Positions 3,622 through 34,472 of a stretch of 35,625 bases of DNA are shown here, piece by piece. The first letter of the stretch is position 1, and each line of letters starts with the position of its first letter. The notes under the pieces are model-generated. The model was not told where the DNA came from. It saw nothing but the letters and a program-made list of their open reading frames with translations, and did no database searches. A program made the translations under genes and the position numbers. The DNA is from a virus, in IMG/VR virus record IMGVR_UViG_3300002168_000001, positions 1 through 35,625 of that record, one strand, 5' to 3'.

Positions 3622-3948
3622 ATGGAAGTAAAAGGAATCACACAGAAAGTGTACCCGAGAGAATCGGGAGTATCTAAAACAGGCAAAGAATGGAGTAAAC
3701 AAGGAATAGTAATTACCGTTCCTGACAAATACCCATACTCATTATACATTACGAATTTTAACGACAGGGCTGGATTTTCAAAAGTAAAAGAAGGCGATAC
3801 CGTTACTATTTCTGCGAATGTATCAAGTCGAGAATTTAACGGAAAATGGTACACGGAAGTAATGGCATGGAAATGCGATGTAGAACAATCCGCACCGCAA
3901 AGCCCAGTAATTGACAATGAGCCAGAGGGGGACGATTTGCCTTTTTAG
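3622..3948 (+). CDS. SSB-like OB-fold ssDNA-binding protein (DUF3127-like) with an acidic C-terminal tip
   Basis: 108 aa. The C-terminus EPEGDDLPF resembles the bacterial SSB tip DDDIPF. The gene sits in the recombination/replication module. Confidence 0.6.
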   Translation: MEVKGITQKVYPRESGVSKTGKEWSKQGIVITVPDKYPYSLYITNFNDRAGFSKVKEGDTVTISANVSSREFNGKWYTEVMAWKCDVEQSAPQSPVIDNEPEGDDLPF

Positions 3949-3997
3949 TAATTGATTAAATATCAAATAGTTATAACAAATAAAAAACAAAAATAAA

Positions 3998-4261
3998 ATG
4001 GGGAAATTTAGAAAAAAACCAGTAGTAATTGAAGCATGGGAATGGGATGAGACCAAAACCACGTTTGAAAAAATAGGGTGTAAATGTATGAGTTGTAGCG
4101 GACACTCTAAACGCCCTGATGAAATGACAAGCCTAAGGATAGAGACACCTGAGGGAACAATGAGTGTGAATAAAGGCGATTATATTATTAAGGGTGTAAA
4201 AGGTGAATTTTATCCATGCAAACCCGATATATTTAAAGCAACATACGAAGCCGTCTTATAA
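3998..4261 (+). CDS. Conserved phage protein (PGDYG-like small protein)
   Basis: RKKPVVIEAWEW at the N-terminus and KGDYIIKG..GEFYPCKPDIFKATYE at the C-terminus resemble a widespread small phage protein family. Confidence 0.55.
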   Translation: MGKFRKKPVVIEAWEWDETKTTFEKIGCKCMSCSGHSKRPDEMTSLRIETPEGTMSVNKGDYIIKGVKGEFYPCKPDIFKATYEAVL

Positions 4262-4279
4262 TTGGTGGTAACGGACGAA

Positions 4280-4299
4280 TGTTTGTGCAGTTGGGGATT
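4280..4299. repeat. 20-bp perfect direct repeat (tgtttgtgcagttggggatt), copy 1, upstream of the methyltransferase 4347..5030
   Basis: Identical to 5049..5068. Both copies are preceded by a TAACG motif 5-6 nt upstream. Confidence 0.9.
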
Positions 4300-4346
4300 C
4301 CCGACACTAAAGCCCAATAGTAGTAATAACTTTAAATTAAACACAA

Positions 4347-5030
4347 ATGATTGATAGAAATACAGAAACACCAATGACGCAAAACCCTTGTTATGTGCAG
4401 CCCTTTTCGGAAGTTTTCAATGAGGACTGCATACAGGTTATGAAGCGTTATCCTGACAAATTCTTTGACCTTGCAGTAGTTGACCCTCCTTATGGCATTG
4501 GAGCAAACAAAATGCAACTTGGCAATGGTAAACGAAAGATTTACAGAGGAGAAAATGACTGGGATAACTCAATACCTGCTGCTGAATATTGGCAGGAACT
4601 ATTCCGAGTATCTAAAAACCAAATTGTGTGGGGGGGCAATTATATGACCGAACACCTAAAGCCAACTTCGTCTTGGTTATTTTGGGACAAAGGAACTGGT
4701 GATAATGATTTTGCTGATGGAGAATTAGCGTGGACTTCATTTGGTGGTGCATTGCGAAAAATAACAAAGAGTTGGGTGGGAGCAAACGCAAAAGACGGAC
4801 TTGAACGAATACACCCCACGCAAAAGCCGATTTATTTATATGATTGGATTTTTGACAGATACTGCAAAGAAGGGGATTGGGTTTTAGATACTCATTTGGG
4901 GAGTGCCAGCAGTAGGATTTCAGCGAATAAAGCCAAGTTGCGTTTTGTTGGTTGTGAAATTGACACTAAATACTTTAAAGATGGAGAAACAAGGTTCAAA
5001 GAATTTGTCTCACAGTTGCGGCTCTTTTAG
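4347..5030 (+). CDS. DNA methyltransferase, beta-class N6A/N4C type (second paralog)
   Basis: The motifs VVDPPYGIG (motif IV), IHPTQKPIYLYDW and DTHLGSAS (motif I) appear in beta-class order. Confidence 0.85.
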   Translation: MIDRNTETPMTQNPCYVQPFSEVFNEDCIQVMKRYPDKFFDLAVVDPPYGIGANKMQLGNGKRKIYRGENDWDNSIPAAEYWQELFRVSKNQIVWGGNYMTEHLKPTSSWLFWDKGTGDNDFADGELAWTSFGGALRKITKSWVGANAKDGLERIHPTQKPIYLYDWIFDRYCKEGDWVLDTHLGSASSRISANKAKLRFVGCEIDTKYFKDGETRFKEFVSQLRLF

Positions 5031-5048
5031 GTTGCACATAACGTTGAG

Positions 5049-5068
5049 TGTTTGTGCAGTTGGGGATT
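5049..5068. repeat. 20-bp perfect direct repeat, copy 2, downstream of the methyltransferase 4347..5030
   Basis: Identical to 4280..4299. Confidence 0.9.
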
Positions 5069-5119
5069 AGAAACCACTGCACTATCGAAATAGTATTAAC
5101 TTAATAAATTGAGATATAG

Positions 5120-5419
5120 ATGAAATTGCATAAACATAGTGTTATAGGAAGTTTTCTTTCTGACACCATTTATATTATTCACCCTTTCAATAATCACATA
5201 CGATTTAAGAAAGTTTGGCCAAATATTCCAAATAGCCGACCAATCGTTGAATTTTTGAAAGGCAATGATAAAGACCCCGATGGAGATTTTATATTAGCTT
5301 TTACAGCTGATTGCGAAATTAGGAACGACAATCTATTAGTTAAACGTTCCAATTTCGGACAAATATGGGAAACTTCAATTCCGCTATCGAGTATTGAGGC
5401 GGATTTAAATTTCCTATAA
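5120..5419 (+). CDS. Hypothetical protein
   Basis: 99-aa ORF with an ATG start. No motif recognised. Confidence 0.55.
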   Translation: MKLHKHSVIGSFLSDTIYIIHPFNNHIRFKKVWPNIPNSRPIVEFLKGNDKDPDGDFILAFTADCEIRNDNLLVKRSNFGQIWETSIPLSSIEADLNFL

Positions 5420-5432
5420 CGTTTTGTGGCTA
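5414..5432. repeat. Intergenic repeat ctataacgttttgtGgcta containing the AACGTT palindrome (copy 1)
   Basis: 18/19 identical to 9567..9585. Confidence 0.8.
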
Positions 5433-5433
5433 T

Positions 5434-5694
5434 ATGCAGTACGAATTATTAACACAAAAACTCAATAAAATGGACAAAGAAAAAATATTATTAGATGCAC
5501 TCAATACATTTGGAAATTTCACAAGTGTTGAGCAGGAATTTAACCAGAATCAGCTTGAAGTTATTTACGAAGCAATGAACTATGTAGCCAATGTTGTGGG
5601 GCAAGGCGAACAGTTTTGTGATTGCGGTAAACCGATTGATAGCAGATATGCTCCATGTTGTAGCTTGGAATGTTGGGATAAGAAATTTCTCTAA
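5434..5694 (+). CDS. Hypothetical protein with a C-terminal Cys cluster (possible zinc-binding)
   Basis: 86-aa ORF. The C-terminal region reads CDCGKPIDSRYAPCCSLEC. Confidence 0.55.
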   Translation: MQYELLTQKLNKMDKEKILLDALNTFGNFTSVEQEFNQNQLEVIYEAMNYVANVVGQGEQFCDCGKPIDSRYAPCCSLECWDKKFL

Positions 5695-5716
5695 GCAAAA
5701 TTGCCCACAACTAACT

Positions 5717-5739
5717 TATATGTATAACAAAATAGTCCA
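5717..5739. repeat. Intergenic repeat tatatgtataacaaaatagTcca (copy 1)
   Basis: 22/23 identical to 12007..12029. The flanking bases are also similar (5708.. versus 11998..). Confidence 0.85.
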
Positions 5740-5762
5740 AACAAAAACTTAAACAATTAATT

Positions 5763-5873
5763 ATGATAACAACGGCATTAATATTCGGAGCGATGTTTGC
5801 GATAGTAGCATTCCTCTCTCGAATTCTCGCAAAATGGGCAATTCGTAAATTAGAAGAAAAAAAATTATTGTAA
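5763..5873 (+). CDS. Small single-pass membrane protein (36 aa)
   Basis: The sequence is MITTALIFGAMFAIVAFLSRILAKWAIRKLEEKKLL, a hydrophobic helix followed by a basic tail. It is not in the ORF track because it is under 60 aa. Confidence 0.4.
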   Translation: MITTALIFGAMFAIVAFLSRILAKWAIRKLEEKKLL

Positions 5874-5992
5874 ATTTGCTTTTTATAAATTAATTATTGT
5901 ATATTAGCAAAAATTTAAGTTATTAAGGTTATTGATTAATGCGGTGTTGTTTCATAGTCGGCACCGTATTTTTCACAAAAAAATTTTACAAC

Positions 5993-6145
5993 ATGAAAAA
6001 AAAGATAATTAGAAAGGATTTAATGAGTAAATCAGAATACTCAAAACAATACGGAATAAGTCGTCCGACAGTAGATAAAAAAATCGAAAACGGCGAACTT
6101 GTAGTTGAGGTAATTTCTGGAGTTGAATATGTTAAAATAGCGTAA
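5993..6145 (+). CDS. Small helix-turn-helix DNA-binding protein (excisionase/MerR-like HTH)
   Basis: The segment SKSEYSKQYGISRPTVDKKIENGEL is HTH-like. The ATG at 5993 (MKKKII) is preferred over 5939, whose extension is Cys/Phe-rich and implausible. Confidence 0.6.
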   Translation: MKKKIIRKDLMSKSEYSKQYGISRPTVDKKIENGELVVEVISGVEYVKIA

Positions 6146-6190
6146 TAGCACATTTTTTTGTGCAATAAATTTTTACAAATTGTTAAAAAT

Positions 6191-6940
6191 ATGAAAGAAA
6201 CATTTTATTTCTCACATGATTACAATGCGAGGTCTGACGAAAAAATAAAAAGACTATTAGTAAAACATGGATTTCTTGGGTATGGTGTGTATTGGGCTAT
6301 TATAGAAGACTTATATCAGAATGCGAACGCAATGCGAACGGATTACGAATGTATTGCGTATGAATTGCGAGTGAATGAAGACTGCATAAAAAGTATAATA
6401 AATGACTTTGATTTATTTGAAATAGAAGGTAATGTTTTTGGTAGTTTAAGCGTTCAAAGACGATTGGACGAAAGAGACAAAAAAAGCAAAAAGGCAAGAG
6501 AATCAGCACTTTACCGTTGGAATAAAAACAAAGAAAATGCGAACGCAATGCGAACGCAATGCGATCGCAATGCTATAAAGGAAAGTAAAGTAAAGGAAAG
6601 TAAAAGAAAAGAAAGTATAAAAAAAGACACTTTCACGCCCCCTCAAATTTCAGAAGTTATAGAATATTTTACCGAAAAAGGATATTCAAAACAAGCCGCA
6701 GAAAAAATGTTTGAATATTACAGCGTGGCAGATTGGAAAGATAGCAGAGGTAATAAGATTCGTAATTGGAAGCAGAAAGCGAATGCGGTTTGGTTTAAGG
6801 ATGAGAATAAAACAAAATCAAACGCAATAGACTATTCGGACAAAACAAAATGGGCGAAACAATCAAACGGATATTACGTTTCTGTAGATACATTCGACCC
6901 TATCACGAAACAAGCGTATTTAGAAAGGATTGCAAAATGA
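6191..6940 (+). CDS. Replication organiser/initiator-like protein (DUF4373, Lin1244/Lin1753-like N-terminal domain)
   Basis: The N-terminus is FYFSHDYNARSDEKIKRLLVKHGFLGYGVYWAIIEDLY. It lies directly upstream of the primase-helicase with an overlapping ATGA. It contains iterons. The ATG at 6191 is preferred over the TTG at 6158. Confidence 0.65.
   Translation: MKETFYFSHDYNARSDEKIKRLLVKHGFLGYGVYWAIIEDLYQNANAMRTDYECIAYELRVNEDCIKSIINDFDLFEIEGNVFGSLSVQRRLDERDKKSKKARESALYRWNKNKENANAMRTQCDRNAIKESKVKESKRKESIKKDTFTPPQISEVIEYFTEKGYSKQAAEKMFEYYSVADWKDSRGNKIRNWKQKANAVWFKDENKTKSNAIDYSDKTKWAKQSNGYYVSVDTFDPITKQAYLERIAK
6320..6340. repeat. Iteron block 1: two 11-bp units (aatgcgaacgc aatgcgaacg)
   Basis: Tandem 11-bp units are seen directly. 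Inverted half-sites attgcg follow at 6353..6358 and 6365..6370. Confidence 0.8.
6536..6573. repeat. Iteron block 2: about 3.5 tandem 11-bp units (aatgcgaacgc aatgcgaacgc aatgcgatcgc aatgc)
   Basis: Seen directly. It is followed by a purine-rich 3 x 15-bp imperfect tandem repeat at 6578..6622. Confidence 0.85.
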
Positions 6941-10902: not shown

Positions 10903-11988
10903 ATGAATAATCATAGATTTCCATATAAATGGACTTTAAAAGATGCCAACTTCACAAAGGATAAAGGCAAAGTATTTAGTTGTTTTGCTTGTGGTGGTGG
11001 TTCAACTATGGGTTATAAATTAGCTGGATTTGATGTGATAGGATGCAATGAGATTGACCCTAAAATGATTGAAGCATACAAGGTAAACCATAATCCAAAA
11101 TATGCCTATTTAGAGCCAATACAGACCTTTAAATTAAGAACTGATTTACCTGATGAATTATACCAATTAGATATTTTGGATGGTTCGCCGCCTTGCAGTA
11201 GCTTTTCAATGGCTGGCAATAGAGAAAAAGACTGGGGAAAAAATAAAGTTTTTAGGGAAGGACAAGCAATGCAAGTTTTAGATACTTTGTTTTTTGACTT
11301 TATTGATTTAGCAAAAAAGCTACAACCAAAAGTAGTGATTGCTGAAAACGTAAAAGGTTTGCTTTTAGGAAAAGCAAAAGCCTATGTAAGGCAAATATAC
11401 CGCGAGTTTGATTTAGCTGGGTATTATTGCCAACATTGGTTATTAGATGCTTCAAAAATGGGAGTGCCACAACGTAGGGAACGAGTGTTTTTTATTGCTT
11501 TACGTAAAGATTTGGCAAACCAATTTTTAGAACAAGTTGATATGTTTACCGTGTTGCCAAAATTAAAACTTGAATTTAATGAGCCACAAATAAACTTTGG
11601 AGAATTTTATGAAGCTGGAGTTGATGATAGACCCGCTTCACAAGGCAAAATGTATGAGTATTGGCAAAATAGAAAACAAGGTGACGAAAGTTTTTGTGAT
11701 ACAATAAAAAGAGTTGAAGGTGCTGAAAGATGCTTTACCAATAAATACCTTTACTCTGATATTGTTCCAATGACATACACAAGCAATTCAGATGTGATTT
11801 ACTTGTTTGATGAATACAGAAAGCCAAACAAAAAAGAAAGTTGCTGTATTGGCTCATACCCACAAGATTATAAATTTACTGGTGTGCAATACAATTATTT
11901 AATTGGAATGAGCGTTCCGCCTGTAATGACAGCAAACATAGCGACTGAAATTTATTCGCAATGGCTCTCAAAGTTGGAACGGTCTTAA
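10903..11988 (+). CDS. dcm: DNA (cytosine-5)-methyltransferase
   Basis: Motif I FSCFACGGGSTMGY, motif IV GSPPCSSFS, motif VI ENVKGLL, motif VIII QRRERVFFIA, motif X GMSVPPVM. Confidence 0.9.
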   Translation: MNNHRFPYKWTLKDANFTKDKGKVFSCFACGGGSTMGYKLAGFDVIGCNEIDPKMIEAYKVNHNPKYAYLEPIQTFKLRTDLPDELYQLDILDGSPPCSSFSMAGNREKDWGKNKVFREGQAMQVLDTLFFDFIDLAKKLQPKVVIAENVKGLLLGKAKAYVRQIYREFDLAGYYCQHWLLDASKMGVPQRRERVFFIALRKDLANQFLEQVDMFTVLPKLKLEFNEPQINFGEFYEAGVDDRPASQGKMYEYWQNRKQGDESFCDTIKRVEGAERCFTNKYLYSDIVPMTYTSNSDVIYLFDEYRKPNKKESCCIGSYPQDYKFTGVQYNYLIGMSVPPVMTANIATEIYSQWLSKLERS

Positions 11989-30423: not shown

Positions 30424-30803
30424 AACTAAAACTAATTAGACTCATTTTCACTGAAGAATATACAGAAGGTCAATTATACATTGATGATGAATACTTTTGC
30501 GACACGATTGAAGACGCATTGCGAAAAGTAAAGATTAAACACATAACGTGTATTGACGCTGGTGTGTATAAAGTATCTCTCACATACTCATCTGTTTTTC
30601 GTAGAGTATTGCCGCTTTTACACGATGTGCCGAAATTCTCGGGCATACGCATTCACAGAGGGAATACAGCGGAACATTCAAGCGGGTGCATAATTGTAGG
30701 TAAAAAATTACGAGACGGATTTGTTGGAAATTCAACCGAAACAGAAAAACTATTATTAAAAAAACTCGAAGGTATTAATAATATAGAAATTGAAATAATA
30801 TGA
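30420..30803 (+). CDS. Putative cell-wall hydrolase with a YkuD/L,D-transpeptidase-like catalytic motif (DUF5675-like)
   Basis: IRIHRGNTAEHSSGCIIVG resembles the H...S.GC catalytic signature. It sits in the lysis position after the holin-like gene. Confidence 0.4.
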   Translation: MKLKLIRLIFTEEYTEGQLYIDDEYFCDTIEDALRKVKIKHITCIDAGVYKVSLTYSSVFRRVLPLLHDVPKFSGIRIHRGNTAEHSSGCIIVGKKLRDGFVGNSTETEKLLLKKLEGINNIEIEII

Positions 30804-31681
30804 TAATAGATTCGCACACACACGCAGGATTATCGTATAGAGACTATCCTAATAAAATTTTTGGAGTATTCTCAAAGTTTTTGCTTGGAAAAAAAAAGCG
30901 TGTGAAATTCGCTGCAAAATTCCTATCCGCTATAATTCCGACCGACAAAGACTTTCTCGAACGATACGCACGTCTTTTAGAATATTCAGAAAAAAGCACA
31001 GCGGAACGAATAGAGGATGCATTAACCTATTGCGATAAACTAAACGCACTTTCTATTAATCTGCAATACATGGGCGCAGGAGACACTCAAAGAACATACG
31101 ATGAACAAATGGAAATGCTCGTATTAATGCGAGAAAAATATAAAGATAGAATCAATATATTCATGATGTTGGAGCCGCAAGACCCGAACATTATTAGACA
31201 CGTAATAAAGTATGAGAGATTTTGCAAGGGGTGGAAATATTACCCACCCGTTTCGGGAACTATCAATAACGGAATGATAAGGCATATTTTAGAAAAACAC
31301 CCGAAGCCGATAATCATCCACACAACGAATACAAGTCCAATTTACAACAAGTTTTTCAAAAAAAAGGTTGCGCAAGATTTCGCACACCCGAAATACTGCA
31401 TTCCATTAATTGAGAAATACCCGAACGTGCCGTTTATATTTGCGCATTTAGGCGGTGAAAATTGGCAAAACGAAGTAATAACTTTATGCAAAAAATATCC
31501 GAATGTTTACACAGACATATCATTCACATTTTCAAAAGACCACGATACATTAAGTAAGATATTTCACAGGATACCCGAAAAAATATTATGGGGTACGGAC
31601 AACCACATGACCGACCCCGAACCGTTCTTGAAAGTTCCATATTTTGAAGCCATGCAAAAAAATAACTCGAAATTATTTTGA
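30800..31681 (+). CDS. Metal-dependent amidohydrolase (TIM-barrel, Amidohydrolase_2-like)
   Basis: IIDSHTHAG at the N-terminus, then IIIHT, FAHLGG and WGTDNHM, matching the amidohydrolase metal-ligand pattern. Confidence 0.65.
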   Translation: MIIDSHTHAGLSYRDYPNKIFGVFSKFLLGKKKRVKFAAKFLSAIIPTDKDFLERYARLLEYSEKSTAERIEDALTYCDKLNALSINLQYMGAGDTQRTYDEQMEMLVLMREKYKDRINIFMMLEPQDPNIIRHVIKYERFCKGWKYYPPVSGTINNGMIRHILEKHPKPIIIHTTNTSPIYNKFFKKKVAQDFAHPKYCIPLIEKYPNVPFIFAHLGGENWQNEVITLCKKYPNVYTDISFTFSKDHDTLSKIFHRIPEKILWGTDNHMTDPEPFLKVPYFEAMQKNNSKLF

Positions 31682-31743: not shown

Positions 31744-31790
31744 ACCCCCGATTTTGTCGCCCGATAAAACGGGGGTTTTTAACTTTTTTT
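31744..31790 (+). terminator. Strong rho-independent terminator ending the late operon
   Basis: The hairpin ACCCCCG-a-TTTT-g-TCG cc CGA-t-AAAA-CGGGGGT (31744..31776) is followed by a T-run. Confidence 0.85.
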
Positions 31791-31877
31791 AACTTTTTTT
31801 CACTTTTTTCAACATTTTTTCATTAAAACTATTGACAAATCAAATTAATTATATTATATTTGTACTATAATAATTAA
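31786..31877 (+). promoter_or_regulatory. 92-bp perfect repeat, copy 1: phased T-tracts plus a strong Bacteroidota-type promoter (TTGACA-N20-TAtaTTTG)
   Basis: Identical to 32391..32482. ttgaca at 31832..31837 and tatatttg at 31855..31862. T-tracts recur about every 10 bp across 31781..31822. Confidence 0.75.
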
Positions 31878-31900
31878 CAAACAACTAAAAAATAGAAATT

Positions 31901-32044
31901 ATGAAAACAACAGAATCGAAAAATGGAAAGATGAAAACTCTAACGATTGAGCAAAAAGAACAAGCATTAAGAGATATTAATTTTTTCGTTGGTGGATTAA
32001 CAGATGAAGCGATTGAATATTACTATAATAAGTTGATATCGTAA
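31901..32044 (+). CDS. Small early hypothetical protein (47 aa)
   Basis: It is preceded by the conserved leader aactaaaaaatagaaattATGaaaa. The product is MKTTESKNGKMKTLTIEQKEQALRDINFFVGGLTDEAIEYYYNKLIS. Confidence 0.45.
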   Translation: MKTTESKNGKMKTLTIEQKEQALRDINFFVGGLTDEAIEYYYNKLIS

Positions 32045-32101
32045 AACGATAATATCATGGAAACACCATTTACACAGTCAAACAATTAAAAATTAGAAAT
32101 T

Positions 32102-32359
32102 ATGAAAACAGAATTAGAAAAATACACCAAAAAATTAAAAAGATTAAAAGGGAAGGAGTTGGTGTTGAAAATGAAAGAAATCCTTCCCAAAGGGAAATAC
32201 ATTGGTTATCCAGACTTTATTTTCATAAATGAAAAGGAAAAGGCGGTAAGGGTTAGTGAAGCCTCGCCAAGATGGGCAAATAATGCCAAAAAGGTGTTTA
32301 AAGAGTTGGGGTATAATCTCAATTTAGATGTCCGAAAAAAAGGAAGTATAATGCTATGA
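32102..32359 (+). CDS. Small basic early hypothetical protein
   Basis: 85-aa ORF with a leader-like upstream sequence (aattaaaaattagaaattATGaaaa). Confidence 0.6.
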   Translation: MKTELEKYTKKLKRLKGKELVLKMKEILPKGKYIGYPDFIFINEKEKAVRVSEASPRWANNAKKVFKELGYNLNLDVRKKGSIML

Positions 32360-32390: not shown

Positions 32391-32482
32391 TTTTTAACTT
32401 TTTTTCACTTTTTTCAACATTTTTTCATTAAAACTATTGACAAATCAAATTAATTATATTATATTTGTACTATAATAATTAA
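32391..32482 (+). promoter_or_regulatory. 92-bp perfect repeat, copy 2 (the same promoter)
   Basis: Identical to 31786..31877. ttgaca at 32437..32442 and tatatttg at 32460..32467. Confidence 0.75.
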
Positions 32483-32506
32483 ACAAAAACTAAAAAATAA
32501 AACAAA

Positions 32507-32791
32507 ATGGAAACAACAAATTTAAAAAACAAAATCCAAAAAGAAGTAGAAATAAACATGATTGACTACTTAAGCCATGCAAAAACTGCAATTGCATTTA
32601 TCAACGAAGTTGTTAGCCCGCTTACTTCGGTAAGCGAAGAACAGGAGCAGGCAATAGGCGACATTCTCTGCCTTACTCAACAAGAGTGGGAGGAGGCAGA
32701 ATGCGATGCAGAGGGTCCAAATAAAGAGCAAGATGCTGCTCTTGATAAGATTATTGAAGATGCAGCTGCTGCCATTTCTGAACTTTTTTAA
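32507..32791 (+). CDS. Small, strongly acidic early protein
   Basis: 94 aa with 15 Glu, 6 Asp, 6 Lys and no Arg. It is the first gene after the second promoter copy. The C-terminal helix is DAALDKIIEDAAAAISELF. Confidence 0.65.
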   Translation: METTNLKNKIQKEVEINMIDYLSHAKTAIAFINEVVSPLTSVSEEQEQAIGDILCLTQQEWEEAECDAEGPNKEQDAALDKIIEDAAAAISELF

Positions 32792-32834
32792 AAAATCAAA
32801 ACCTATATTAATAAAAAAACTAAAAAATAATACT

Positions 32835-33257
32835 ATGAAAACAATGGAAAAAATTAATGCTAAATGGGTAGATGAAAACAACAACACATGGACTTCTTCC
32901 TTATACACTAAGGAAGAGGCAATTGAAATGAGTAAATCTCTTATCAATTGTCGGGATTGTTCGGATTGTCGGTATTGTCGAGATTGTCATGATTGTCATG
33001 ATTGTCGGTATTGTCGGTATTGTTCGGATTGCCGGAATTGTTCGGATTGTCGGAATTGCTATAATTGTGAGGGATGTCGGTATTGTTGGGGTTATCAGGG
33101 ATGCCGTGATTGCTATAATTGTGAGGGATGTCGTGATTGTAATGGGTGCATGGAGTGTAAGGATTGTGGTTGCTGTGAATATTGTGAGGGATGCCGTGAT
33201 TGCTATAATTGTGAGGGATGCCGTGATTGCTATAATTGTGAGGGATGCTGCTCTTGA
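32835..33257 (+). CDS. Cys-triplet-repeat protein: a 38-aa N-terminal domain followed by 102 aa with Cys at every third residue
   Basis: MKTMEKINAKWVDENNNTWTSSLYTKEEAIEMSKSLIN is followed by CRDCSDCRYCRDCHDCHDC...CEGCRDCYNCEGCCS. The leader motif lies upstream. The ATG at 32835 is preferred over 32706, which would overlap the previous gene. Confidence 0.65.
   Translation: MKTMEKINAKWVDENNNTWTSSLYTKEEAIEMSKSLINCRDCSDCRYCRDCHDCHDCRYCRYCSDCRNCSDCRNCYNCEGCRYCWGYQGCRDCYNCEGCRDCNGCMECKDCGCCEYCEGCRDCYNCEGCRDCYNCEGCCS
32949..33254. repeat. 9-bp-periodic coding tandem repeat (TGY-NNN-NNN, 34 units), including two perfect 27-bp units
   Basis: 33 of 34 consecutive codon triplets begin with TGT or TGC. 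The perfect tandem tgtgagggatgccgtgattgctataat occurs at 33183..33209 and 33210..33236. Confidence 0.9.
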
Positions 33258-33338
33258 TAAGATTATTGAAGATGCAGCAACCTCTATTGCCGAACTTTTT
33301 AAAAAAAAAAATTAAACAAAAACTAAAAAATAGAAATT

Positions 33339-33890
33339 ATGAAAAATTTAAAAATCACAATCGAAAATTTACAACAACTTAATCCATGCGAATCGGGATA
33401 CGAGTTCGCCCAATCTAAAAATTCTTTAATAGAAGCATGGGAAACGTGTGAAAGAGGCGATTTGATGCTTTGGTTTGCAAGTAAACTTGAGTGTCCAGTG
33501 GAACTATTGACCCTAGCAAAGGGGAAATGTGCTGAAACAGTTATTCATTTGATGAAAGACGAAAGAAGTCGCAAGGCGGTAAAAGCTGCCATTGATTTTG
33601 GTAATGGCGTTGCTTCACGTGAAGAATTAGATGCGGCTTCTGATGCTGCTCATGTTGCTGCTAAGGATGCTTTTGATTATGCTTTTGCAGCTTATGCTGC
33701 AGCCGCTTCGAATGCTGCTTATGCTGCTTATGCTGCTGCGAATGCTGCTTATGCAGCTGCTGCTTATGCTGCTTCTTATGCTTCTTCTGCTTCTGCTGCT
33801 GCTGCTGATGCTGCGAAAAAAGCAAACCAGCTTCAAACGGCTAACATCTGCAGAGAAGTGCTTACTGATTTTATAAAATCAAAACTATGA
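33339..33890 (+). CDS. Ala/Tyr-repeat protein: a Cys-containing N-terminal domain followed by a low-complexity alanine-rich helical repeat
   Basis: The N-terminus LNPCESGYEFAQ...AWETCERGDLMLWFASKL is followed by DAASDAAHVAAKDAFDYAFAAYAAAASNAAYAAYAAANAAYAAAAYAASYASSASAAAADAA. An identical 25-nt leader lies upstream. Confidence 0.65.
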   Translation: MKNLKITIENLQQLNPCESGYEFAQSKNSLIEAWETCERGDLMLWFASKLECPVELLTLAKGKCAETVIHLMKDERSRKAVKAAIDFGNGVASREELDAASDAAHVAAKDAFDYAFAAYAAAASNAAYAAYAAANAAYAAAAYAASYASSASAAAADAAKKANQLQTANICREVLTDFIKSKL

Positions 33891-33916
33891 AAAAATAATA
33901 TTAAAAAATAGAAATT

Positions 33917-34189
33917 ATGAAAAAAACACATCAAGACTATTTTAAAGCGGTCGAGTTCGCAAAAGAAACAACCGACAAAGTGATTGAAAAGCTCGAACAA
34001 ATAGCAATCGAGAATAAAATAGAAGCGAAAATCACAACAGAATACATTGCGGAACGAAACGCATTCGTAATTGAAGTTAGCAATATGACTAACTACCATA
34101 TTAACGAAGTCGCAAAAGTAATGCTTGGGAAACGAGCGCAATCGACTTCGATGAAATCAGGCTATATTGTAATTGATATAAACGAGTAA
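33917..34189 (+). CDS. Small early hypothetical protein
   Basis: 90-aa ORF with the conserved leader upstream. Confidence 0.6.
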   Translation: MKKTHQDYFKAVEFAKETTDKVIEKLEQIAIENKIEAKITTEYIAERNAFVIEVSNMTNYHINEVAKVMLGKRAQSTSMKSGYIVIDINE

Positions 34190-34191
34190 TT

Positions 34192-34398
34192 ATGTACGGA
34201 TTCACAACTGTAGAGGAAGACTTAGCTAAATATATGCAAGAGCTTGAAGAAAGAGAAAAAGAAGACATCGAATATTACAGCGAAGAAATCGAATGTGCTG
34301 AATGCGGAGAAACACACGCACGTGGCGACATGAACGAAATCTGGTTACATTGGATTTGCGATAAGTGTAAAAATGAGCATTTCCCGAGAAAGAAATAA
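34192..34398 (+). CDS. Small acidic zinc-ribbon protein
   Basis: 68 aa with an acidic N-terminal half, then CAEC...CDKC. Confidence 0.6.
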   Translation: MYGFTTVEEDLAKYMQELEEREKEDIEYYSEEIECAECGETHARGDMNEIWLHWICDKCKNEHFPRKK

Positions 34399-34472
34399 CT
34401 TCCTTGTATGTACACTATAATAATTAACAAACTAAAAATGAGCAATATAATAACAACAGAAACGCAAATAAA

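Follow-up and report, generated by a model that had tools for sequence, protein, structure and literature searches.

The DNA considered here, which we call the window, is the IMG/VR virus record IMGVR_UViG_3300002168_000001 taken over its whole length (positions 1 to 35,625; 35,625 nucleotides). On its forward strand, at 32835..33257, lies an uninterrupted open reading frame (ORF) of 141 codons, including the stop, that begins with an ATG at 32835 and ends with a TGA at 33255-33257. The encoded protein of 140 residues consists of a hydrophilic N-terminal domain (N-domain, residues 1-38) followed by 34 residue triplets (residues 39-140), 33 of which start with cysteine; the 102 array residues include 35 cysteines. 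Our analysis recovered every element of this pattern that an earlier note on the same DNA had described, namely the 38-residue N-domain, the cysteine at every third position with its counts, and a perfect 27-bp tandem at 33183..33236. We find that the ORF is, almost certainly, a member of the phrog_15341 family of phage proteins, which combine this N-domain with a (CXX)n array, and that the window copy is, with the same near certainty, a family member truncated at its C terminus.

The N-domain is encoded at 32835..32948 on the forward strand, contains the motif KWVDENNNTW..YTKEEAIEMSKSLINC, and is predicted by AlphaFold2 (AF2) to have a beta-beta-beta-alpha arrangement. Judged from its sequence, the N terminus has no hydrophobic stretch and no signal peptide. 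The native (Cys-x-x)33 array follows at 32949..33245 (forward strand) with a period of 9 bp; its 5' half is made of degenerate 9-bp units and its 3' half of 27-bp units that encode CEG CRD CYN, and Tandem Repeats Finder calls both periods, 9 and 27. Two of the 27-bp units stand in perfect tandem (33183-33209 and 33210-33236 are identical) and represent a recent expansion. A diverged copy of the unit with two mismatches (33093..33119, forward strand) carries the sole triplet that does not start with cysteine, a YQG at 33093 that arose by point mutation of TGT GAG to TAT CAG and thus begins with tyrosine. At the second x position (x2) of the window array, aspartate occurs 12 times, glycine 8, asparagine 6 and tyrosine 5 times, and the array as a whole includes ten tyrosines and one tryptophan.

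The pattern of codon usage indicates that the cysteine period is kept by selection and is more than the trace of a recent duplication. The 33 units that precede the junction described below comprise 18 distinct 9-mers. Positions 1 and 2 of their cysteine codons are near invariant (one minor base in 66 sites), whereas the synonymous third position has minor bases at 9 of 33 sites and each position of the x codons at 9-18 of 33. The 35 cysteine codons of the ORF are a mixture of 23 TGT and 12 TGC.

Membership in the phage family is supported by searches of several collections. In PHROGs, the protein matches phrog_15341, a family of unknown function, over residues 4-90 (E=9.8e-26); phmmer retrieved 51 homologues from a collection of 5.8 billion proteins; and a profile of the N-domain plus four triplets matched 858 clusters at E<=1e-3, 217 of them at E<=1e-10, among 1.84 billion representatives. 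Homologues found by tblastn are encoded in 16 Campylobacter phage records (Firehammervirus-type) and in one Flavobacterium phage. Within the window, the N-domain profile matches this ORF only (E=3.5e-24). The window protein contains the conserved pattern of the N-domain, W.D.NNN.W..YT.E.A...S..L.NC over ~35 residues, and N17, A29, L36 and C39 are invariant in the family alignment. The best metagenome relatives are only 52-54% identical to the window protein, no exact copy of it was found on record, and megablast of the locus against phage genomes gave no match. Scans of the protein against Pfam and NCBIfam detected no family at E<=1. A literature search on Cys-x-x repeats of this kind, on phage pentapeptide proteins and on LPD28 returned a single relevant paper, on bacteriocins (Haft 2009; PMC2674419), and the Cys array is so far represented in databases only by hypothetical proteins and by a PHROG of unknown function.

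All of the alignments place the conserved N-domain in the frame that yields the Cys triplets, which settles how the repeat is read. Two features might have suggested a non-coding tandem repeat in which an ORF arose by chance: the repeat is largely free of stop codons in each of the three forward frames, and the GenBank annotators of Flavobacterium phage FL-1 picked a different frame of a similar repeat. However, hundreds of proteins conserve the N-domain, which shares its reading frame with the array, the cysteine codons vary only synonymously, and an Rfam scan of the repeat region matched no RNA family. The homologue evidence refutes this explanation, to which we attach a negligible probability, and upholds the view of the earlier note that the frame is genuinely coding.

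The usual architecture in this family is the N-domain, then a (C-x-[D/N])n array, then a C-terminal domain (C-domain) of ~78 residues with the consensus NPQRYTT.KIGSRN.QTTFYW....QVVCGCF.G.L..FE..V..TH.DN. The N-domain is always joined directly to a (Cys-x-[Asp/Asn/Tyr/Gly])n array, and ten proteins have two N-domain plus array modules in one chain. Family-wide, the first x position (x1) is mainly serine or arginine and occasionally histidine, whereas x2 is aspartate or asparagine in 66% of triplets, followed by tyrosine and glycine. Some members end after the array (these include CPt10_1641, P0028 and P0046), and in others the C-domain is replaced by LPD28 (P0026) or by a WHTCDTTHCRAGW domain (P0044 and P0071). 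A second family combines a different N-domain (N2) with 0-40 triplets and then the WHTCDTTHCRAGW domain. The latter is mostly a stand-alone protein of ~100 residues with 1425 database matches and no Pfam family (P0245-P0363).

Arrays of the relatives range from 2 to 40 triplets; in the 87 proteins that have both flanking domains, the range is 4-35 and the median 17. Close relatives have flanking domains that are 80-97% identical and yet differ in the length and x residues of their arrays. In the clade formed by P0003/4/11/17/21/31, the N- and C-domains are 71-97% identical, whereas the arrays (20-32 triplets) are 44-68% identical, and one third of this array identity is contributed by the invariant cysteines. 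L012 and L013, which are closest to the window gene, match the window protein exactly over 16 consecutive N-domain residues. Between these two the C-domains hardly differ, but the arrays have 40 and 29 triplets, respectively, with different x residues. These comparisons indicate that the array changes length in 9-bp steps and that the x residues turn over rapidly while the cysteine period is conserved. The proposal of the earlier note that the array can expand and contract is borne out in this way. In the FL-1 genome (L010; KY421186.2, 3833-4649), the annotated coding sequence (CDS) APZ82901.1 (3945-4289) is in the wrong frame of a 9-bp repeat and reads APVAPIAPV... The frame that has homologues is an ORF at 3833..4537 with a different N-domain, about 40 CxxC triplets and an IENIHQKV..WH.C domain, which a frameshift splits from the next annotated CDS (4425-4649, ...CRAGWVVQLAGK...).

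The window protein ends two residues past the array and lacks the ~78-residue C-domain that L012 and L013 keep, and a profile search of every frame of the window for this domain gave a best E value of 2.6. From 33244 onward, the DNA instead repeats the 3' end of the upstream gene, which we call ORF94 (32507..32791, forward strand, 94 residues). This duplicate (33244..33307, forward strand) has 35 bp identical to 32732-32766 and is 88% identical over 64 nucleotides; the 3' end of ORF94 at 32732-32795 is its source or paralogue. The end of the array reads ...TGT GAG GGA TGC / TGC TCT TGA. The junction lies in a pentamer, GATGC, that is shared by both sequences and constitutes a microhomology, and a similar A-rich leader follows the duplicated copy. 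As the join is out of frame, the stop codon is reached three codons past the junction, and the duplicated segment supplies the last codons TGC TGC TCT together with the TGA. Given this microhomology junction and the out-of-frame duplicate, only the N-domain and 34 triplets would be made. Most simply, the C-domain would have been lost in an illegitimate crossover that joined the array to an ORF94-type 3' end. The earlier note had counted the final CCS triplet as part of the array; it is indeed in frame, but the last two cysteines, like the stop codon, lie inside the out-of-frame duplicate, and the native array ends at about 33245.

The +1 frame of the duplicated copy would read DAALDKIIEDAATSIAELFKKKN. 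The two copies of the segment differ at seven sites, and since these differences are mostly non-synonymous, the +1 reading of the duplicate is without sign of selection. A programmed frameshift into the duplicated DAALDKIIEDAATSIAELF tail is therefore best described as a conceivable but unproven product. Were one G lost from the GGG at the junction, the DAALDKIIEDAATSIAELFKKKN tail would be fused to the Cys frame. An alternative-frame ORF of 108 residues (IVGIV..., 32989..33315, forward strand) matches no family, and homologues back the Cys frame only, so that this ORF is probably not a gene. This second frame (IVGIVRIAG...) meets no stop anywhere in the repeat and continues, still in frame, into the duplicated DAALDKIIEDAATSIAELFKKKN tail; neither this product nor the G-deletion fusion has support.

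Although the C-domain is missing from the window, its distribution in other phage proteins provides the main clue to the nature of the array. A profile search with the C-domain identified P0237, in which it follows pentapeptide repeats (PF00805; E=4e-12). With the C-domain of P0237 as the query, tblastn retrieved phage proteins annotated as pentapeptide repeat protein, pipB2 and putative acyltransferase from Staphylococcus, Listeria and Bacillus phages, among others. One of these architectures is that of SEP1_136 of Staphylococcus phage phiIBB-SEP1, in which pentapeptide repeats are followed by ...IDNIGTFAGKVTYLPEQDKVFAGCWKGNLEEF..., the same C-domain. Foldseek searches of BFVD with the C-domain returned matches over 65-69 columns (root-mean-square deviation 1.5-2.0 A, probability 1.00) in proteins named beta solenoid repeat, hexapeptide-repeat transferase-like, pentapeptide repeat and polymer-forming cytoskeletal protein. 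In other phage proteins, the family C-domain is thus preceded by beta-solenoids of the pentapeptide, hexapeptide and bactofilin types. Because the same C-domain follows beta-solenoids elsewhere, the Cys array, as aligned by architecture, is in a solenoid-equivalent position and occupies the place of at least three kinds of beta-solenoid in sister proteins. It is chiefly on this shared architecture that we base the reading of the array as rod-like or solenoid-like, which is an architectural argument and not a fold prediction.

The likeness to SEP1_136, P0237 and similar proteins extends beyond the C-domain (IGSR..TT.YW....VVCGC[FW].G.L.EFE..V...H.DN), which stands directly after the repeats in both groups, in that both are encoded by small phage accessory genes. 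They differ in that the repeats of the former are A(D/N)LXX pentapeptides, or of the hexapeptide or bactofilin type, and are preceded by a different N-terminal cap, whereas those of the Cys family are C-x-x. The window protein itself lacks the C-domain that SEP1_136-type proteins carry, and it has no PF00805 match in Pfam, so that its tie to these proteins is through the C-domain of its relatives only.

Structure prediction is informative for the flanking domains. With the family alignment as input, AF2 predicts the N-domain of the window protein with block means of the predicted local distance difference test (pLDDT) of 86-94, and the N- and C-domains of P0023, a short full-length homologue, with pLDDT 86-96. 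As AF2 is confident in the flanking domains only, no fold can be claimed for the array. DSSP assigns isolated bridges at successive cysteines of the window model, within the array of low pLDDT. Foldseek comparisons of the window and P0023 models with PDB turned up no match at E<0.4 for one model and none whatsoever for the other; the window model had no match. A sequence profile search of PDB yielded marginal similarities only, led by 1EZG (E=0.09) and followed by CXXC zinc fingers (E 0.1-1). The statement of the earlier note that this is not a standard domain accordingly holds across Pfam, NCBIfam and PDB. Its suggestion of a metal- or disulfide-stapled solenoid has gained indirect support, since the family C-domain otherwise follows beta-solenoids, but the array is not confidently modeled by AF2.

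The window is a segment of a tailed-phage genome that encodes a primase/helicase, two DNA methyltransferases, a large terminase, a portal and a major head protein, and its terminase most closely resembles terminases from phages of Rhodobacteraceae, Cellulophaga, Bacteroides and Flavobacterium. The two DNA methyltransferases (N6_N4_Mtase; phrog_116) and an Amidohydro_2-family protein are encoded at 4347-5030, 10903-11988 and 30800-31681, the Amidohydro_2-family protein immediately ahead of a block of small genes. The Cys gene lies inside this block, which follows the structural module. Elsewhere, too, homologues of the Cys gene are found among runs of small unannotated phage genes.

Expression of the Cys gene can be considered in light of a 112-nucleotide repeat element that bears a promoter. 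Its second copy (32391..32502, forward strand) is 96% identical to the first (31786-31897), and a third, partial copy is found at about 34393-34432; each of the three copies seems to stand at the start of a transcription unit of small genes. The second copy contains the promoter sequence TTGACA-17-TATATT at 32437-32465 (scan score 11/12), followed by a TG and a TATAAT box. This is likely the promoter of an operon composed of ORF94, the Cys gene and a downstream gene, ORF183. No terminator is predicted between ORF94 and the Cys gene, which would be second in its transcription unit because the second 112-nucleotide copy precedes ORF94. This near-consensus promoter could correspond to the strong early promoter of the earlier note, but it sits ahead of the upstream gene, and early expression of the Cys gene is plausible only.

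ORF94 has no family match, and no relatives of it were found in viral contigs. An A-rich leader (..AAACTAAAAAATAATACT; 32803..32834, forward strand) directly precedes the ATG of the Cys gene and is related to the leaders of other genes of the block. A conserved A-rich leader (..AACTAAAAAATAGAAATTATGAAAA) stands directly before five starts, at 31869-31907, 32070-32108, 32474-32512, 33307-33345 and 33885-33923. Such leaders, which have no purine run resembling a Shine-Dalgarno sequence, would fit a Bacteroidota-type host. The downstream gene of the putative operon, ORF183 (33339..33890, forward strand, 183 residues), matches phrog_18326, which is of unknown function, and no Pfam family. It has a 9-bp-periodic coding repeat of its own, rich in codons for alanine and tyrosine, at 33680-33814 (AAYAAAASNAAYAAYAAANAAY...), such that two repeat proteins would be adjacent in one putative operon.

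We favor the hypothesis that the Cys gene encodes a truncated member of a widespread phage accessory family whose array is a Cys-cored, probably metal-stapled and rod-like scaffold that is made early in infection; taken as a whole, we give this package an even chance of being correct. The rod fold and the metal stapling appear moderately likely. The array would fold as a thin rod or solenoid-like stack with the thiols or thiolates of cysteine as its only core, since the x residues are almost all polar and leave cysteine as the sole possible core. Given the absence of a signal peptide and the reducing cytoplasm, metal-thiolate stapling is likelier than disulfides, and the cysteines would most likely be held by metal ions in Zn-type tetrathiolate sites. 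The polar x residues would then form the variable surface of the rod, and the N-domain may act as its cap or nucleator. The protein would be made early from the repeated promoter. By analogy with the solenoid proteins whose place the array takes, it could bind a host component and so act as a scaffold or mimic of tunable length.

Several observations weigh against this hypothesis. We infer the rod from architecture, and AF2 does not predict it: the window array has pLDDT 41-52 with no confident fold, and that of P0023 only 46-60. The metal stapling is likewise a step that we infer. The array lengths of the 87 proteins with two flanking domains are spread roughly evenly modulo 2, 3 and 4, and these unquantized lengths give no hint of a coil length. 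Members of the N2/WHTCDTTHCRAGW family may have as few as 0-2 triplets, which would suit a dispensable linker as well as a rod. No recurrent partner gene stands beside the homologues across the neighborhoods checked, which deprives the hypothesis of a pointer to a target, and the solenoid plus C-domain proteins from which the scaffold or mimic role is borrowed are themselves of no known function. Finally, the truncated window copy could be a decaying remnant.

Many of the same observations would be accommodated if the array were an expandable low-complexity linker without a function of its own, in which 9-bp slippage is tolerated at a domain boundary and of which the window copy is a remnant being lost. 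Any triplet number from 2 to 40 would then be acceptable and lengths would be unquantized, arrays of 0-2 triplets and low AF2 confidence would be expected, the perfect 27-bp tandem would reflect ongoing slippage, and the end of the window gene at an out-of-frame junction would be of little consequence. A linker of this kind does not, however, account for cysteine codons that vary only synonymously while x codons vary freely across 18 distinct units, or for the strong family-wide bias of x2 to D/N/Y/G. Furthermore, the N-domain is always attached to an array, N-domain plus array modules have been duplicated as a unit within single proteins, and proteins that consist of these two parts only are retained in 16 Campylobacter phage genome records. 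We therefore consider a mere linker unlikely, although it is the foremost of the competing explanations.

The array invites comparison with Cys-rich proteins in which the cysteines have a known role. Metallothioneins resemble it in their very high cysteine content, their polar intervening residues and a plausible metal-thiolate binding; they are built of CxC, CC and CxxC clusters and are nearly devoid of aromatic residues. The array differs from them by its strict period of three, its richness in tyrosine, its folded flanks and its hypervariable length. A metallothionein-like sponge that sequesters or buffers Zn, Cu, Cd or Fe inside infected cells would be consistent with 35 cysteines in 102 residues and with the occasional histidine at x1, and its capacity would scale with the variable repeat number. 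Such a sponge would be expected neither to have folded and conserved N- and C-domains in a solenoid-equivalent architecture nor to exist as members with only 4-6 triplets. Moreover, no metallothionein model in Pfam or NCBIfam was matched, the C-x-x period contrasts with the typical CxC and CC clusters, aromatic residues are common in the array, and metal-transport or stress genes are absent from the homologue neighborhoods checked. A sponge thus appears improbable, somewhat more so than the linker.

A chain of Fe-S clusters that acts as an electron conduit or redox sink would likewise make use of the cysteines. In 4Fe-4S ferredoxins, three ligands classically come from a CxxCxxC segment, and in CXXC zinc fingers as in ferredoxins, such a local segment provides three ligands of one metal site with a spacing like that of the array. 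In those proteins, however, single defined sites of eight or four cysteines are set in a fold, whereas the array iterates the spacing up to 40 times. The weak profile resemblance to CXXC-type metal-binding domains (E~0.1) has to be set against the lack of any ferredoxin or Fe-S family match in Pfam and NCBIfam, the lack of a CP or distal fourth-ligand pattern, polar and hydrophilic x residues that offer no hydrophobic shielding for clusters, and a free variation in length that misfits defined cluster sites. We regard an Fe-S chain as the most improbable of the readings that assign the protein a function.

A structural rather than functional parallel is provided by the beta-helical antifreeze protein of Tenebrio molitor (TmAFP; PF02420, PDB 1EZG), which, like the proposed array, has a thin repeat, a core formed by a cysteine ladder and a polar, regular surface. 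TmAFP is a secreted and disulfide-bonded protein with the 12-residue repeat TCTxSxxCxxAx and a cysteine at every sixth residue, whereas the window array has one at every third and the protein has no signal peptide. Neither PF02420 nor any other Pfam family is matched by the window protein at E<=1. An old annotation of phage CPt10 records weak PF02420 matches on the homologue.

The closest published sequence analogue of the array is found in the precursors of heterocycloanthracin/sonorensin-type bacteriocins (TIGR03601) of the thiazole/oxazole-modified microcin (TOMM) class, in which an N-terminal region of ~35 residues is followed by Cys-Xaa-Xaa repeats with tripeptide indels between strains (PMC2674419). 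Indeed, on the sequences compared, the C-x-x pattern is otherwise known only from TOMM precursors. Both groups share this layout and a variable repeat number and are easily miscalled by gene finders. They differ in their x residues, which are S/R and D/N in the Cys family and Gly-Gly in heterocycloanthracin, and the Cys family is further distinguished by the lack of a match to the leader model, a predicted folded N-domain, a C-domain after the repeats in most members and its being encoded by phages.

The analogy raises the question of whether the window protein is a precursor of a ribosomally synthesized and post-translationally modified peptide (RiPP), with the N-domain as the leader and the Cys-x-x core heterocyclized or crosslinked by a maturase to give a thiazole-rich or thioether peptide. 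That the product is merely a leader-sized N-domain and a core agrees with such a scheme, as does a radical SAM gene located two genes downstream of the CPt10 homologue (L009, Campylobacter phage, 4001-6256; N-domain and array, no C-domain). This gene was rejected as a candidate maturase: it is generic and falls below all cut-offs. Another homologue (L023, 424-5510) lies near QueC, PTPS and radical SAM genes of the 7-deazaguanine pathway, with which the radical SAM gene of that locus belongs. The proximity of homologues to radical SAM genes is thus probably coincidental and not a maturase link.

Other observations also disfavor a RiPP precursor. No heterocycloanthracin or other NCBIfam model is matched, and matches of the cyclodehydratase, dehydrogenase, docking or maturase type are absent from the window ORFs that were searched (10 in Pfam and 10 in PHROGs, several ORFs having been run against one library or neither; the search covered phage DNA, with the host genome outside it). 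Nor is there a maturase in the homologue neighborhoods whose Pfam content was listed. The N-domain is predicted to be folded and globular with pLDDT above 90, most members have a folded domain after the presumed core, and some have two N-domain plus array modules. In addition, the residue before each cysteine is mostly aspartate or asparagine, whereas characterized cyclodehydratases of the TOMM class prefer glycine in this position. We conclude that a RiPP precursor is very improbable, only marginally less so than an Fe-S chain. The interpretation given in the earlier note is, overall, partly supported; it missed the large phage family, the lost C-domain, the recombination junction and the published analogue (PMC2674419).

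Returning to the Cys-cored scaffold that we favor, a more specific and speculative version can be formulated, to which we assign a low probability. On this version, the array would be an unrecognized class of structural repeat with a core column of metal-tetrathiolate sites (approximately one Zn per four cysteines) and the N-domain as its cap. Phages might use its strongly anionic, rapidly evolving surface as a mimic or decoy of adjustable length, nucleic acid being one conceivable model, and might thereby neutralize a host DNA-binding enzyme or defense system, taking the role of the pentapeptide solenoids in sister proteins. Experiments would be better served by the L012 protein or another full-length relative than by the truncated copy of the window.

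The implications reach beyond this one gene. Repeats of this kind are open in several frames and are misannotated in public phage genomes, of which FL-1 is one example. The exchange of pentapeptide, hexapeptide and bactofilin-type solenoids before one and the same C-domain suggests a common phage strategy, which could be studied through any of these proteins. If the array is indeed an ordered, Cys-cored and metal-stapled rod, it would represent a new repeat class among the few solenoid folds, with only three residues per unit, and would provide a functional handle on at least several hundred unannotated phage accessory proteins.

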